A stretch of DNA of 64,000 nucleotides. Origin: an uncultured Candidatus Poseidoniales archaeon. Its GTDB lineage: Archaea; Thermoplasmatota; Poseidoniia; Poseidoniales; Poseidoniaceae. A program made the position numbers and the translations under genes. The notes beneath the pieces are model-generated. The model was not told where the DNA came from. It made no database searches and saw nothing but the letters and a program-made list of their open reading frames with translations. The DNA lies in NCBI GenBank assembly GCA_905182185.1, contig CAJJAP010000004.1, forward strand, positions 72,178 to 136,177, given 5' to 3'. Of the stretch, positions 42,424 through 64,000 are shown piece after piece (the stretch's first letter is position 1; every line of letters starts with the position of its first letter).

Positions 42424-43889
<1,466 letters not shown>

Positions 43890-58900: not shown

Positions 58901-59068
58901 GAGGAGTTCGGTCTCTAAATGCGGCTTAGTTGCGTGGTTCTTTAATATCCAACCCACCTAGCAATCCCATAAAAAAACACCCCAATGCTACAAAAAGATT
59001 TCAGATTTCACTTTCATTATTCAGCAACCCCACGCATTATCCTTTTTTACCCTCGCCGTAAAGGAAAG

Positions 59069-61723
59069 GATATGGCAACTGTTCAACACCCATTCCTAAA
59101 GGATGGCGTTGAGGCAAGAGCATACCAATTTAAGGCCCTGAAGCAATGTTTAACGGCATCCACGATGATGGTGATGCCTACCGGTTTTGGCAAAACCGCA
59201 GTAGAATGGATGGCGATGGCCAATTGTCTGCACAATGAAAAAGGCAAGGTATTACTTATCGCACCTACTACCGGATTGGTTGAACAACAACAGAGAATGG
59301 CTAGGGCTATGATCGATATTGATGAGAATGAGATAATCACCTACACAGGCGATAACACACCTGCTAACAGACCAGAGTTATGGGATACTGGTAAAATTAT
59401 TATCGCAACGCCCCAAGTAATTCGCAATGATGTCCAAAATGGACTTATTGATTTGGCCGACTTAGGTCTAATAATTTTTGATGAAGCACACCATGCAACG
59501 GGCAACCATGCTTATTCTCAAGTTGGACAGTTGATGTTTAGCGCTAATCCCAAATGTTCCGTTATCGGTGCAACTGCTAGCCCTGGTTCTACTGAAATTG
59601 GAATTAGACAAGTCGCTAAAAATTTGAATATCAAAACTTACTCCGTTAGTAAGAAGGAAAATTCTCTTTTGCAACCATATAAGGTCAACATGAAAATCAC
59701 CCCTCACTATCTGGAACTTGGAGATGAACTCAATAAGATCATCCTACCTTTAGAACTCCATCAAAACGCAGAAGCAGAACAATTGAGAAAAATGGGATTC
59801 TTAGCCCCTACTGGGCATTTATCTTCGAAATTGATAGAAGATGCACAACGTAAGGCAAGCATTGCGATTCAAAGAAGAGATACTAGAGGGTATAATGCTG
59901 CAAGGAAGATCTCTAATCTGCGTAGGGTTCACATCTTGCTGGACCTCCTTAGAACTCAAGGATTGAAATCTGCCCAGGCATTTGTCGATAGAGCAGAAGA
60001 AGATGGCAGAAGTGGGCAAAGGGGCACAAATAGTTTCATTGCATTACCTTGCATCCATAATTTTAGAAATGTTTCAAAGCAATTCGATGAATTACATCCA
60101 AAACCTCAACATGCAGCTAACCTATTATCACAGCAATTGAAAGATTCCCCCGAAAGTAAAGTCCTAATCTTTACCGAATACAGAGATACGGTCGAATTGT
60201 TAACAGCCAAGTTCAATTCTATAGAGGGAATCATTGCTGACCGTTTTATTGGTCAATCTGGAACTGGAAGCAGAAAGGGAATGAATCAGAAACAGCAATT
60301 AGCACAATTACAAAGATTCCGTGAAGGAGACATCAATGTCCTAATTGCCACCTCTGTCGGAGAGGAAGGATTAGATGTCCCTGCTGCCGATTTAGTAATA
60401 TTATATGAGCCCGTTCCAAGCGCTATTCGAACCATACAAAGAAGAGGAAGAACTGCCAGACAACGGGATGGAGAAGTCCATATTCTAATCACAAGCGATA
60501 CACGAGATGTGTTCGTCTACATGGCTTCAAAAAGTAGAGAGAAGAAAATGCACATCCACCTAGATAAGATAAAGCGTGGTATTATATCGATTTTAGATAA
60601 CCATACAACTGGTGATGTTCTATCCGACTTTTCTGTTGCTGAGGAGGATGGAAGTATAGTCACTGCTGCCGATTACCTCTCCTCTGAAAAAAATAGACTT
60701 GACGAACTATACCCTGTATTAGAAACAGTAGAGCCAGAGGTCAAGAAAGGTAGCGGTGGAGTAAATATTACGGCTGGTGACAGTATTCCGCTAATCACTC
60801 CAGCGATGCGAAGGCCAAGCAATCAAATGGGATTAGATTCATTCTCCAATCTCAGTGAAAAGAAAACTGAAACGACCAATGTTGAAAAGGAAATTATTCT
60901 CGATAGTAAACAATTGAACTCGAAATGGAAAGTGACCTTAGATGGCTCCAAACAACAACTCATCGAAAAGGATGATGCTGATTATGGAATTATACAAGTT
61001 GACCACCGCGAAGCATCTACTACATTTGTCGCCCATATGCGTAGTATGAAATGTAATATTCAACTTACTCATCTGTACAACGGAGATGTACGCATTTCAG
61101 ATAGAGTCTTGATCGAAAGAAAAAGTTCTCGAGATATTATCTCCTCGTTGATGGATGGAAGATTATTATCGCAGTGCAGAAGATTACTTGCTGCCGCACC
61201 CCGCCCCTTATTGCTAGTTGAAATCGGAACTGAAACTGGCCACGCAGTCCACCCAAATGCAGTTCTTGGTGCATTAGCACACATTACATTAGATTTAGGC
61301 GTGCCAGTAATGATGACACAAAATGCCAAGGAATCTGCTCACTTTGTTAGTATTGCAGCAAAGCGTGAATTTGATTTATTGGAAAAATTGGCAACTTATT
61401 CATTGAACAAGAAATCAAATGCTGATTCCGAGAAAGGAGAGATTGAAAATTGTATTAACGCTGCAAATAAAGAAATTATCTCCATTATCAATGAACAGGA
61501 AGAAAGTGGACCCTTGGCAAAGCGATGGAACAAACTAGTTTCTAAGCAAAGAGTCGAAGTTCTTGCTGCGATCCCAAATTTAGGAAATAAGAAGGCCCAA
61601 TTACTTCTCGACCATTTTGGTACGATAGCAGCTGTATTATGTGCTAGTCAGAGTGAGTTGGCCAAGGTTGAAGGAATTGGGCCATCCACGGCAGCAACTA
61701 TTGAACAAATACTCAATGCTTGA
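59069..61723 (+). CDS. hef: Hef: helicase-associated endonuclease for fork-structured DNA (SF2 helicase + ERCC4/XPF nuclease + HhH2)
   Basis: MPTGFGKT, FDEAHHATG, QRRGRTAR. ERKSSRDIISSLMDGRLLSQ nuclease motif. C-terminal tandem HhH. Confidence 0.9.
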   Translation, partial: DMATVQHPFLKDGVEARAYQFKALKQCLTASTMMVMPTGFGKTAVEWMAMANCLHNEKGKVLLIAPTTGLVEQQQRMARAMIDIDENEIITYTGDNTPANRPELWDTGKIIIATPQVIRNDVQNGLIDLADLGLIIFDEAHHATGNHAYSQVGQLMFSANPKCSVIGATASPGSTEIGIRQVAKNLNIKTYSVSKKENSLLQPYKVNMKITPHYLELGDELNKIILPLELHQNAEAEQLRKMGFLAPTGHLSSKLIEDAQRKASIAIQRRDTRGYNAARKISNLRRVHILLDLLRTQGLKSAQAFVDRAEEDGRSGQRGTNSFIALPCIHNFRNVSKQFDELHPKPQHAANLLSQQLKDSPESKVLIFTEYRDTVELLTAKFNSIEGIIADRFIGQSGTGSRKGMNQKQQLAQLQRFREGDINVLIATSVGEEGLDVPAADLVILYEPVPSAIRTIQRRGRTARQRDGEVHILITSDTRDVFVYMASKSREKKMHIHLDKIKRGIISILDNHTTGDVLSDFSVAEEDGSIVTAADYLSSEKNRLDELYPVLETVEPEVKKGSGGVNITAGDSIPLITPAMRRPSNQMGLDSFSNLSEKKTETTNVEKEIILDSKQLNSKWKVTLDGSKQQLIEKDDADYGIIQVDHREASTTFVAHMRSMKCNIQLTHLYNGDVRISDRVLIERKSSRDIISSLMDGRLLSQCRRLLAAAPRPLLLVEIGTETGHAVHPNAVLGALAHITLDLGVPVMMTQNAKESAHFVSIAAKREFDLLEKLATYSLNKKSNADSEKGEIENCINAANKEIISIINEQEESGPLAKRWNKLVSKQRVEVLAAIPNLGNKKAQLLLDHFGTIAAVLCASQSELAKVEGIGPSTAATIEQILNA

Positions 61724-61726
61724 GAT

Positions 61727-62584
61727 TCAACTTCCAATAATAAGCGCACGTGTTCTTAGTTGTGCAAACCTATCTGGATAGTGTCCTAAGGCGAATGCAA
61801 CTAATTCTGCAAGATGTAATACTGGCATTGCAGTATCCTTCCCAGTTAATTTACCAGCCCTTGATTGATAAGAATCAAGATTCGAATGAGAAATAGTGCA
61901 CGTACTTACCATGATATCTGCTCCACTCTGTTTTGCATCTGCAAGAACTGCTGCTGTCATGGCCATTGTTGTACCCTCTAGAGTAAGAAGTGAAGGTGCG
62001 CCAACACTTTGGCACTTGAGTTCGTAATCTACCGGAGTTCCTCCCATTGCATTGATTAACTGTTCTAAGTAATTAGGAAGGAAAGCATCGTCATCACCAC
62101 AAGCACCCTCTCTTTGCATATTAGAACCATAGTACCCTGCAACATTGAGTTTTATCGGATTGACTACAGCGGCACTAATTTTATCTAAACCAATGTCTTC
62201 AACCAAGTAGTGAAGAAGATGGCGAGATTTAGATTCCCCTGAATATTCGATTCCAGATGTCATAGAGATTAGATTATTCAATTGTGAAGCATATACTGGA
62301 TCGGAAGCAATGATCTCCGCAGTATCACACATTATTGCGTGAGATGTTGCACAGGTAGTCATGATATCGATACTTTTTTGTTCAGCAAGAGCAAGATTGC
62401 GAGCAACCAATGAATGCTGTAATTTCGGCGATGCTTGGCTGATGATATTGCCGCCATCACTCGATGACTTTGGAATTTCTATCAAATCAATTCCAAGTGT
62501 CTTACACAAAGGAATGATGCAATCCTCAACTTCCATAGAAGCTGCCCTTGCAGTATTGCCTGGATAATATGCTATTTTTGCCAT
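61727..62584 (-). CDS. HdrB/SdhE/GlpC-like double CCG-domain homolog with degenerate cysteine motifs
   Basis: The two-halves pattern KIAYYPGN...SSSDGGN...TTCATSH and VAGYYGSN...CQSVGAP...STCTISH parallels YFPGC...CCG...CxxC. Judged by eye only. Confidence 0.5.
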   Translation of the reverse strand: MAKIAYYPGNTARAASMEVEDCIIPLCKTLGIDLIEIPKSSSDGGNIISQASPKLQHSLVARNLALAEQKSIDIMTTCATSHAIMCDTAEIIASDPVYASQLNNLISMTSGIEYSGESKSRHLLHYLVEDIGLDKISAAVVNPIKLNVAGYYGSNMQREGACGDDDAFLPNYLEQLINAMGGTPVDYELKCQSVGAPSLLTLEGTTMAMTAAVLADAKQSGADIMVSTCTISHSNLDSYQSRAGKLTGKDTAMPVLHLAELVAFALGHYPDRFAQLRTRALIIGS

Positions 62585-62593
62585 ACCAATCAC

Positions 62594-64000
62594 TCAGAAC
62601 CTCTTGTCAATTTCATTGAATAGGCTGACAACTTCATGATGCGCATCAACCTTTGAATTGATCATGTTTGGTATCTTACCAATTCCTGATGGTGGCACTA
62701 ATAGTCCTTGAAAACCACGGATTGGTGGCCCTCCATTACGCGTGAATCCTAATAGCATGCGTGCAGAAATACCGTTGAAAATGTTGCCAATCAAGCCAAG
62801 TGGCCCAAGCACCTGACGGTATAGTGTAGTTTCATTGACATTACCTGTCCACTTAACACTGCGTCCATACCACTTTACTAAGCGACCATGTTTACCACCG
62901 TAATTACTTGAGTTGAGTAGATGTGCTCTTGCAGAGTTCAATCCTCTTGCTGCAAGTTTCCCATCTGTTCCATAGCGTGCGATTGAAGATAAATCTGCTT
63001 CCGCCCATACTCCGTCTGTTTCATTCAATGAAGAGAGAATGCTCTTTCTTTGCTCTACCCCACACCTTGGGTCTTCAGCACGTAGCCATTGCTGTAAATG
63101 AATGCCTGGTCCTTCGTATGCCTTGTCATAACTTGAAGTATCCGACATTGATTGAACTAATTGATAAGATAAAATATCACTCTTTTGATGCAACTCAGTA
63201 GCGAGTGATGCTTCCATTGTACCAACAGCAGCGCCGTTCAATAAACGAGACCCTTCTCTTGGGTCGGCTCTCATCCAAGGCTCTGCTCTTGCCCTTGCTG
63301 CCTCATATCCTGATAAATCAACAATTAAGTCACGGATAATAGGTAATCCTGGTGCTGGTTCAATCTTCAAATTACCTCTAGACCCAATTAAATCTGAGAC
63401 TCGTGTGATATCTGCAAGAACAATTCTTCCATTAACACGAACTCCAGTAGTTGGCGTACCGCCGTTTGTTCCTCTTCTGAATGCCAAACTACCATCAATA
63501 TCTTGCTGAATTGCAAGCAACAAATCTTCAACTGTTGCGTGAGCAGGTACAGCGCACGAGATTGTGTCCCAGCCTGATTGTGCTGCGCTAGGACAATACC
63601 TGAATAATTCAATGGTTACTGAAATTTCATCCATTACTACCGTACCAGGTGTGAAATCACCAGAGGATACTGAATCATCTTGGCCAGCACCATATGCAGT
63701 CATTTCCTCAACTAATGATTCGTGGAATACTCCGGCACTATCGACACAAGCGATGCGAGGTAACACAGTTTTGACCCATGCAGCCCAAGGTTCGTCAAAA
63801 TCAACATCACATAGTTGTATTTCCTGAATTGAAGTCGCCCCTAGTGCTGAAAACTTTTGATCCCAATCCACTCCGGCTTTACAAAATTCGTCATAAGAAG
63901 AGTCTCCAATCGCACAAACTGAATAATTAAGTCCTGCTAAAGTAGGAGATGAACTGTTTATTCCTTGCCAGAAATCTTCTGCATTATCTGGCATATCACC
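62594..64000 (-). CDS. Flavodoxin-like module fused to an SdhB/FrdB-like domain lacking all Fe-S cysteine ligands (5' end beyond window)
   Basis: Frame open to the window edge. GDSSYDEFC flavodoxin-type motif. SLAFRRGTNGGTPTTGVRVNGRIVLADIT and PGLPIIRDLIVDL align with SdhB [17 protein letters not shown]..LAC and PGLPVIRDLVVDM. Confidence 0.6.
   Translation of the reverse strand, partial: GDMPDNAEDFWQGINSSSPTLAGLNYSVCAIGDSSYDEFCKAGVDWDQKFSALGATSIQEIQLCDVDFDEPWAAWVKTVLPRIACVDSAGVFHESLVEEMTAYGAGQDDSVSSGDFTPGTVVMDEISVTIELFRYCPSAAQSGWDTISCAVPAHATVEDLLLAIQQDIDGSLAFRRGTNGGTPTTGVRVNGRIVLADITRVSDLIGSRGNLKIEPAPGLPIIRDLIVDLSGYEAARARAEPWMRADPREGSRLLNGAAVGTMEASLATELHQKSDILSYQLVQSMSDTSSYDKAYEGPGIHLQQWLRAEDPRCGVEQRKSILSSLNETDGVWAEADLSSIARYGTDGKLAARGLNSARAHLLNSSNYGGKHGRLVKWYGRSVKWTGNVNETTLYRQVLGPLGLIGNIFNGISARMLLGFTRNGGPPIRGFQGLLVPPSGIGKIPNMINSKVDAHHEVVSLFNEIDKRF

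Follow-up and report, generated by a model that had tools for sequence, protein, structure and literature searches.

We analysed a 64,000-nt stretch of DNA (hereafter the window) from an uncultured Candidatus Poseidoniales archaeon (GCA_905182185.1, contig CAJJAP010000004.1) and identified at its end, at 61727-64000 on the minus strand, a gene pair composed of an SdhB-like fusion gene and a gene for a two-lobed CCG protein related to HdrB and SdhE, with most cysteine ligands of the ancestral iron-sulfur (Fe-S) clusters replaced. Both open reading frames (ORFs) are long, intact and adjacent, as the initial annotation of this DNA had described, and the upstream ORF is open to position 64000, the window edge that cuts the fusion gene. 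The genes, domains and retained cysteines are as follows.

62594-64000, minus strand: 3' part of the fusion gene, with the C-terminal 468 codons plus stop; ORF at 62594-63994, still open at the window edge
63794-64000, minus strand: C-terminal half of a flavodoxin of the CysJ/cytochrome P450 reductase (CPR) type for flavin mononucleotide (FMN), recognized by Pfam Flavodoxin_1, FMN-domain matches in the PDB and a partial NCBIfam cysJ match
63614-63793, minus strand: linker from the flavodoxin to the SdhB-like body, partly conserved, with the motif ACVD.SG...L..EM..YG
63308-63613, minus strand: SdhB N-terminal beta-grasp (Fer2_3) domain, its four [2Fe-2S] cysteines gone (T, gap, T, D)
62885-63307, minus strand: remnant of the SdhB [4Fe-4S]/[3Fe-4S] helical domain, its seven ligand columns being I, Y, V, S / E, I, G
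62597-62884, minus strand: C-terminal extension, homologous to the extension of CCG-partnered SdhB, with the family-specific insertion GFTRNGGPPIRGFQGLLVPPSGIGKIP
61727-62593, minus strand: HdrB/SdhE-like gene of the two-lobed CCG fold, 288 amino acids (aa) counted from GTG 62593
62351-62353, minus strand: Cys81, first cysteine of the N-lobe CxxC, invariant in ~230 relatives
61898-61900, minus strand: Cys232, first cysteine of the C-lobe CxxC, placed within the invariant motif C-T-x-S-H and itself invariant in ~230 relatives

The stop codon of the fusion gene is followed by GTG ATT GGT ATG, and a GAGGT lies 13 nt 5' of that ATG within the end of the fusion gene. The true start of the HdrB-like gene is therefore most likely ATG 62584, which gives 285 aa as called in relatives, and the gene is most likely translationally coupled to the fusion gene.

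The SdhB-like body was recognized by Fer2_3 (PF13085; E 3.1e-11, 43.7 bits vs a Pfam cutoff of 27), and SdhB/FrdB chains were the closest solved folds of its structural model in a Foldseek search (E ~1e-10 over ~250 columns), in agreement with the SdhB likeness noted initially. The NCBIfam SdhB models scored below their cutoffs (PRK05950, 62 bits vs 228; PRK12576, 58 bits vs 344), and Fer4 Pfam domains had no match in the window part of the fusion protein. Ligand columns were read from a MAFFT alignment that combines nine Cys-complete SdhB-like proteins with the window protein and 13 representatives of the family (down to ~40% identity) and is anchored over its full length by DGSL.FR, P...(I/V)RDL.VD, PW, GP and DPR. 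None of the 11 SdhB cluster-ligand columns holds a cysteine in the window protein, and no ligand set is present in these columns across the 14 family representatives, two of which have one stray cysteine each. In 171 homologs encoded at the loci, the C-terminal 340 aa contain no C..C motif. It is DILSYQLVQSMSD, and not NGAAVGTMEASLA, that aligns with the first 4Fe-4S motif, CxxCxxCxxxC; this corrects one of the four motif alignments proposed initially and leaves the conclusion of ligand loss unchanged.

The former 2Fe-2S loop varies across the family through indels and is the least constrained part of the fusion protein, while the C-terminal extension with its family-specific insertion is the most conserved. 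The former cubane-cluster columns are filled mainly by I, Y, V, L and G, which argues against alternative ligation. Continued cluster binding with Asp, His or Ser as ligands in place of cysteine is nevertheless conceivable from the D at one 2Fe-2S column, from the invariant S169 and E217 at two cubane-cluster columns, and from the Asp that replaces the last CCG cysteine in some DsrK proteins (PMC10861901). We regard it as very improbable: no site has a complete alternative set, and some members have deleted up to 5 residues of the 2Fe-2S loop. AlphaFold2 (AF2) could not place the C-terminal extension in the chain modelled alone (pLDDT < 35), and the extension therefore probably folds on the HdrB-like partner.

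The downstream protein scored below threshold for Pfam CCG (PF02754; 15.3 bits vs a gathering score of 20.6) and far under the cutoffs of NCBIfam CoB_CoM_SS_B (123 vs 345) and MFR_anch_SdhE (114 vs 500), so that of the domains named initially Fer2_3 and Flavodoxin_1 were recovered above cutoff by profile searches and CCG and Fer4 were not. Its similarity to HdrB in the PDB is significant with the single sequence (phmmer E 1.7e-29) and with a family profile (E 2.4e-43), and its AF2 model (pLDDT 86.3, pTM 0.87) has the two-lobed HdrB fold, superposing on 5odc_B and 8rvy_B with TM scores of 0.86-0.88 (0.88 for 5odc_B). The same model matches PDB 3kwl, a 498-aa 'hypothetical protein' of Helicobacter pylori (TMq 0.75, E 2e-10), which the SdhB-like model matches more weakly; 3kwl may be a solved fused Fer4/CCG-type protein.

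Two of the ten CCG cysteines, C81 and C232, are retained in the window protein (pattern NSDCS/SSVCS). The initial claim that every ligand had been replaced thus holds for the 11 SdhB columns but not for these two invariant residues. The other former ligand positions are N13, S45, D46 and S84 in the N-lobe and S157, S196, V197 and S235 in the C-lobe, and the replacements are conserved across ~150 relatives (N13, S45, D46, S/A84; P/S157, S196, V197, S235), as is H236 at the former C-lobe site. A 2Cys-2His metal or Rieske-like site (C81/H85 plus C232/H236) was rejected as the main idea, as S84 and H85 are only ~65% conserved (alternatives A, Q). Alternatively, C81 and C232, which belong to different lobes on either side of the former heterodisulfide cleft, could form a redox-active dithiol/disulfide reduced by tethered FMN or ferredoxin, making the pair a thiol-based reductase whose basal lineages would use one noncubane cluster plus an orphan cysteine as in DsrK. 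Both cysteines are invariant in all three states of the protein described below though the clusters they ligated are gone, the surrounding polar residues are conserved, and DsrK, HmcF and TmcB work with a single CCG cluster and a strictly conserved cysteine from the lost motif (PMC10861901). However, the cysteine retained here is the first of CxxC and not at the CCG position (GECGH) as in DsrK, these aerobes have no known candidate for a disulfide substrate, and flavodoxin-type FMN normally donates single electrons to metal centres, not to disulfides. We therefore consider a thiol-based reductase unlikely.

The fusion to a flavodoxin that continues past the window edge, as noted initially, was confirmed by Flavodoxin_1 (PF00258; E 8.5e-12, 45.9 bits vs a Pfam cutoff of 25) and by matches of the FMN domain to the NOS, CPR and CysJ FMN domains in the PDB (E 1e-17 to 6e-20). 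Two FMN-loop motifs, STWGEGDMPDNA-type and IGDSSYDEFC (W/Y stacking loops), lie inside the window; the GSQTGNA phosphate loop, off the window, was seen only in the closest homologs. These homologs (P0001-P0005; full length 655-656 aa) are 94% identical over all 468 window-encoded residues and consist of a 4-Cys ferredoxin, an Ala/Pro/Glu-rich linker (readable in P0001 and P0002), a complete flavodoxin and the SdhB-like body, in this order. An exact-sequence search with the HdrB-like protein of the window returned no contig, and homologs of 94% identity were used in its place. Their ferredoxin domain has the motif CxxCxxC...CP (Fer4_13/15-type monocluster) and is similar to the monocluster ferredoxins of D. 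gigas, T. maritima and P. furiosus. By comparison, the window protein is predicted to be ~655 aa long, of which the window holds the last two-thirds only; the ferredoxin, the linker and the first flavodoxin half are thus known from the homologs, the corresponding region lying beyond the window edge. Because the homologs carry a 4-Cys ferredoxin there, the holoprotein of the window lineage is probably not iron-free, and a purely flavin-based or non-redox role, as first suggested for it, is not warranted.

Both genes are under strong purifying selection. In comparisons at dS 0.3-1.6, the SdhB-like part and the HdrB-like gene each had a Nei-Gojobori dN/dS of 0.05-0.08, and the flavodoxin part had 0.07-0.17. 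Pattern scans that covered a single genome for each GTDB species recovered relatives with intact ORFs in 416 genomes. The labels of nearly all of these read Poseidoniales, Poseidoniaceae, Thalassarchaeaceae or generic euryarchaeote, and the pair is apparently universal in Poseidoniales. A few of the 416 genomes are obviously mis-binned. Poseidoniales-type fusion genes were also present in assemblies labelled Verrucomicrobiales (L111, NZEQ01000037.1), Yoonia sp. (L200, CAXRJJ010000097.1) and Deltaproteobacteria (L208, JAOMAZ010000036.1), which is probably binning or single-cell contamination and not transfer. Loss of ligands would also be expected of decaying pseudogenes, but dN/dS of 0.05-0.09 (dS up to 1.6), the intact ORFs and the conserved replacement residues speak against decay, and homology E-values of 1e-29 to 1e-43 against a chance resemblance. 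These readings have practically no probability left and are ruled out by dN/dS and the presence in 416 genomes; the genes are retained, as first supposed.

The SdhB-like body (SdhB') is Cys-less throughout the family and the C-lobe motif of the HdrB-like protein (HdrB') is degenerate (xSVCS) in all members, while the N-lobe motif falls into three states.

State 1: N-lobe intact, C-lobe degenerate (CCCCC, xSVCS); ~45 clusters; some Thalassarchaeaceae, and L053, L058 and L059
State 2: N-lobe partly lost (NSCCT, PSVCS); 74 clusters; Thalassarchaeum and MED-G34
State 3: N-lobe lost (NSDC(S/A), xSVCS); ~110 clusters; Poseidoniaceae, including the window

The N-terminal carriers also differ between lineages, the database clusters comprising ferredoxin-flavodoxin (Fd-Fld, n = 70), Fld-Fld (n = 51), single Fld (n = 6), Fd-Fd (n = 1) and Fd (n = 1) architectures. 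At 75 distinct loci both genes were readable and the state of HdrB' could be paired with the N-terminal architecture.

N-lobe CCG motif intact: Fd, Fd-Fd, Fd-Fld (9)
N-lobe CCG motif partial: Fd-Fld (20), Fld(-Fld) (9)
N-lobe CCG motif cluster-free: Fd-Fld (27), Fld-Fld (6)

Among these loci Fld-Fld never occurs with an intact N-lobe motif and is limited to partly or fully lost motifs, and Fd alone and Fd-Fd are limited to intact ones. In the Fld-Fld form the whole complex would be iron-free. The most divergent family member, L058 (ENA ERZ26167216 ctg495766; 3.0-Mb contig, 69% GC at the locus), combines one ferredoxin domain with an intact N-lobe CCG motif and lacks a flavodoxin. In the genome collection no species representative is close to its high-GC organism (best tblastn identity 44%), and L058 could represent the basal state of the system.

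A search of a representative library returned the family as a tight island of 24 clusters at E < 1e-30, separated by a gap from ordinary SdhB at E ~1e-12. The closest canonical relative examined, P0283, has the same C-terminal extension, is recognized by the models for long SdhB (PRK12577) and for MFR SdhB, and is encoded in an operon sdhA-sdhB-CCG(291 aa)-sucC-sucD (locus L057), with a CCG neighbour that matches MFR SdhE. Because this relative with the shared extension lies in an sdhA-sdhB-CCG operon, the ancestor of the pair is best reconstructed as a type-E-like SdhA/SdhB/SdhE enzyme; SdhE has been described as a monotopic anchor that binds a [4Fe-4S] cluster via CCG domains (PMC2754724). 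The operon, the Fer2_3 match and the HdrB profile together support the SdhB plus HdrB/SdhE-like ancestry proposed initially. The sole non-family match of the first scan, L056, proved to be an ordinary acidobacterial sdhA-C-D-B operon and was uninformative. None of the 20 best canonical outgroups had an archaeal name in cluster look-ups.

Given this ancestry, the pair could be the iron-sulfur/anchor part of complex II in Marine Group II (MGII), binding SdhA and using tethered FMN or ferredoxin in place of the 2Fe-2S/4Fe-4S/3Fe-4S relay from FAD to quinone. The SdhB-type beta-grasp and the C-terminal extension are kept, the HdrB-like protein bears the IMG label 'succinate dehydrogenase cytochrome b subunit', and the MGII core table of Tully 2019, where complex II is called 'canonical', lists sdhA, one 'sdhB' cluster (92/90% of genomes) and one 'sdhC' cluster (96/92%) and no sdhD. 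Yet tblastn over 2.2 Mb detected no SdhA-like gene within 3.5-10 kb of the pair, whether in the window or in ~217 related loci, whereas the canonical relative has an adjacent sdhA, and searches with canonical SdhB and SdhA on the window and related loci returned the expected locus only. The same table lists 'cysJ' (100/99% of genomes), very likely the fusion, apart from 'sdhB', which suggests a distinct canonical SdhB, and the former 2Fe-2S loop, in canonical SdhB the SdhA interface, is here the least constrained region, with indels. A role as part of complex II is thus improbable. The table is read most economically if its 'cysJ' is the fusion, its 'sdhC' is the HdrB-like protein and a canonical SdhB exists apart from them. 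With sdhA, one sdhB, one 'sdhC' and no sdhD listed, the 'canonical complex II' call may rest partly on this pair.

We tentatively favour, at somewhat less than an even chance, a cofactor-stripped SdhB/SdhE scaffold in which electron transfer now runs via the tethered Fd and FMN carriers. Homology, loss of the ligands, the fusion architectures, the graded states, purifying selection, synteny and distribution were observed; that the two proteins form a heterodimer and transfer electrons, and between which donor and acceptor, is what we infer. The module would descend from the SdhB and CCG (SdhE/HdrB-like) subunits of a type-E-like succinate:quinone oxidoreductase (SQR). The three SdhB clusters and the C-lobe noncubane cluster would have been lost in the common ancestor of the family, and the N-lobe noncubane cluster later, stepwise, within Poseidoniales. 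Redox capacity would have shifted to N-terminal carriers on flexible linkers, namely a monocluster [4Fe-4S]/[3Fe-4S]-type ferredoxin and/or one to two CysJ/CPR-type flavodoxins. The SdhB'/HdrB' body would serve as a docking scaffold, with the C-terminal extension clamping HdrB', on which the tethered Fd and Fld domains would shuttle electrons from a soluble donor, with 2-oxoacid:ferredoxin oxidoreductase and ETF as candidates, to an acceptor. The acceptor may bind the remodelled, conserved HdrB' pocket (a quinone or disulfide) or sit on a partner complex; electrons would pass to the one remaining noncubane cluster in basal lineages, and to a ligand of the remodelled pocket or a partner complex in the window lineage. 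The succession from Fd or Fd-Fd over Fd-Fld to Fld-Fld, parallel to the loss of the last CCG cluster, fits a progressive Fe-S-to-flavin replacement and iron economy.

Several observations weigh against this proposal. No gene for a donor or acceptor linked to the locus was found in the window and related loci. The SdhB clusters were already lost in the ancestor of all members, among them the high-GC estuarine L053 and the 69% GC L058, before the marine radiation; iron limitation therefore cannot explain the first step. The iron-sparing adaptation put forward in the initial annotation gains indirect support from the graded cluster loss and the restriction of Fld-Fld to partly or fully lost N-lobe motifs, but does not account for the early loss in the SdhB part. 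Furthermore, AF2 gave only a weak model when the SdhB' body was modelled alone (pLDDT 59.5), and the conserved polar HdrB' pocket could equally suit a non-redox role. The latter would apply if the SdhB'/HdrB' body were a pseudoenzyme with a structural, assembly or regulatory function, for example as an accessory subunit, and its Fd and Fld domains were sensors or merely parked there. The internal Fe-S wire is completely lost, the strongest constraint lies on an interaction element, the C-terminal extension, and the housekeeping neighbourhood (thermosome, ribosomal operon) is conserved, as such a function would predict. Against it, no cofactor motif is missing from the carrier domains, and whatever replaces a carrier is again a carrier (Fd or Fld), a pattern typical of functional electron transfer; basal lineages also keep one complete CCG cluster motif. 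We assign this pseudoenzyme a low probability.

A more specific version of the electron-transfer scaffold, which we consider rather unlikely, would make the pair an electron-input module of MGII respiration. The tethered Fd and Fld domains would collect electrons from 2-oxoacid:ferredoxin oxidoreductase and/or ETF and deliver them to quinone or to a NuoEFG-less complex I, on a membrane-peripheral scaffold that once held about five Fe-S clusters and was converted to flavin stepwise across Poseidoniales. The MGII core genes include korAB (~87-92% of genomes), etfAB (~94-97%) and an 11-subunit nuo with nuoA-D and nuoH-K; nuoE/F are absent from the list, and fixC/ETFDH is not in it (Tully 2019). 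If true, this would be the first wholesale Fe-S-to-flavin replacement in a complex-II-type framework, with natural intermediates.

The pair is convergent with a gene for a Hef-type helicase/nuclease (58985-61723, plus strand) that ends 3 nt from the HdrB-like stop codon, and the rpl3 ribosomal-protein operon is next beyond it. The order thermosome, fusion, HdrB-like, Hef (opposite strand) and rpl3 operon is kept even in members that are only ~40% identical. The Hef-like helicase of relatives ranges from 596 to 968 aa (L001 12862-14781, L058 12829-15735, L061 4862-6652), and the short forms have helicase Pfam domains only and lack the ERCC4/HhH nuclease part. Directly upstream of the thermosome gene, all lineages examined encode a ~1100-aa protein without any Pfam match, which is part of the same deeply conserved neighbourhood:

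L001 4752-8117: ~1100-aa Pfam-less protein
L058 2198-5503: ~1100-aa Pfam-less protein
L059 4909-8247: ~1100-aa Pfam-less protein

Elsewhere, the window contains a complete archaeal 16S rRNA gene (42424-43889, minus strand; Rfam RF01959, 1466.7 bits) without an adjacent 23S rRNA gene, and no tRNA genes in the whole 64 kb. Unlinked rRNA genes have been described for Thermoplasmata-related lineages including MG-II (PMC4153887).

Judged from its sequences, the pair belongs to known superfamilies yet fails the defining cofactor features of each, and points to an undescribed low-iron electron-transfer device in MGII. Poseidoniales are among the most abundant archaea of the surface ocean. A full-text literature search returned no description of an SdhB-flavodoxin fusion, of Cys-less CCG/SdhB proteins or of this MGII pair beyond automatic names, in line with the initial remark that no described family of this kind was known. 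Pereira 2019 lists the gene pair beside the ribosomal operon as 'succinate dehydrogenase cytochrome b subunit' and 'sulfite reductase NADPH flavoprotein' (PMC6741140). Current annotations call the fusion 'sulfite reductase flavoprotein/cysJ' and also use 'heterodisulfide reductase B' and 'succinate dehydrogenase cytochrome b subunit'; automatic labels of this kind were seen on relatives of the window pair (P0130, P0135, P0425, P0430, P0034). Such misleading names feed published metabolic reconstructions of MGII, and both the 'cysJ' core-gene call and the 'canonical complex II' call may partly depend on them. If the pair is an electron-transfer device, it bears on the reoxidation of reduced ferredoxin and ETF in these archaea, on what feeds the 11-subunit complex I, and on how life in the low-iron surface ocean economizes on Fe-S clusters. 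The graded series (CCG intact, partial or none; Fd, Fd-Fld or Fld-Fld) is a comparative system for a scaffold that survives cofactor loss, and the interest of the pair lies in its ubiquity in a major ocean lineage, in these natural intermediates and in the consequences for annotation.

Among known systems, type-E SQR (SdhABEF of Sulfolobus and Acidianus; MFR SdhABE of Campylobacter and Wolinella) likewise have an extended SdhB followed by a ~285-aa two-lobed CCG protein, and the NCBIfam MFR_anch_SdhE (114 bits) and PRK12576/12577 SdhB models match the pair. Unlike these enzymes, the locus has neither SdhA nor SdhF and consists of B'-E' only between thermosome and Hef genes, the pair keeps 0/11 SdhB ligands and 2/10 CCG cysteines and scores far under the family cutoffs, and it has gained N-terminal Fd/Fld domains and an insertion in the C-terminal extension. 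Methanogen HdrB is the best sequence and structure match of the downstream protein and shares its two pseudo-symmetric lobes, but holds two noncubane [4Fe-4S] clusters via CX31-39CCX35-36CXXC, twice, where the pair has one cysteine per lobe; the pair occurs in an aerobic heterotroph, and the downstream protein has an SdhB-like (Fer2_3) partner instead of HdrC. As in DsrK/HmcF/TmcB and FadF/DgcB, one CCG cluster is lost and an orphan cysteine conserved, the basal CCCCC/xSVCS state being analogous, although the lost motif and the retained cysteine differ in position between DsrK-type proteins and HdrB'. The former keep canonical [4Fe-4S] ferredoxin-like domains and membrane partners, and we know of no CCG protein of the DsrK, HmcF, TmcB, FadF or DgcB type with both motifs lost. 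This group of CCG proteins is also a precedent for electron uptake from a flavoprotein, and EtfD is a CCG protein that receives electrons from ETF (PMC13083937). Thiol:fumarate reductase TfrB, with a weak NCBIfam match (32 bits vs a cutoff of 385), combines SdhB-like and CCG modules in one system; it is a single Cys-rich polypeptide acting with TfrA, whereas the pair is two polypeptides without cluster cysteines or a TfrA/SdhA neighbour. The FMN domain is of the same type as in CysJ, CPR and NOS, but no FNR-like FAD/NADPH domain follows it and the flavodoxin is joined to the SdhB-like body; Fd and Fld modules replace each other from lineage to lineage, in the manner of classical iron-sparing swaps.

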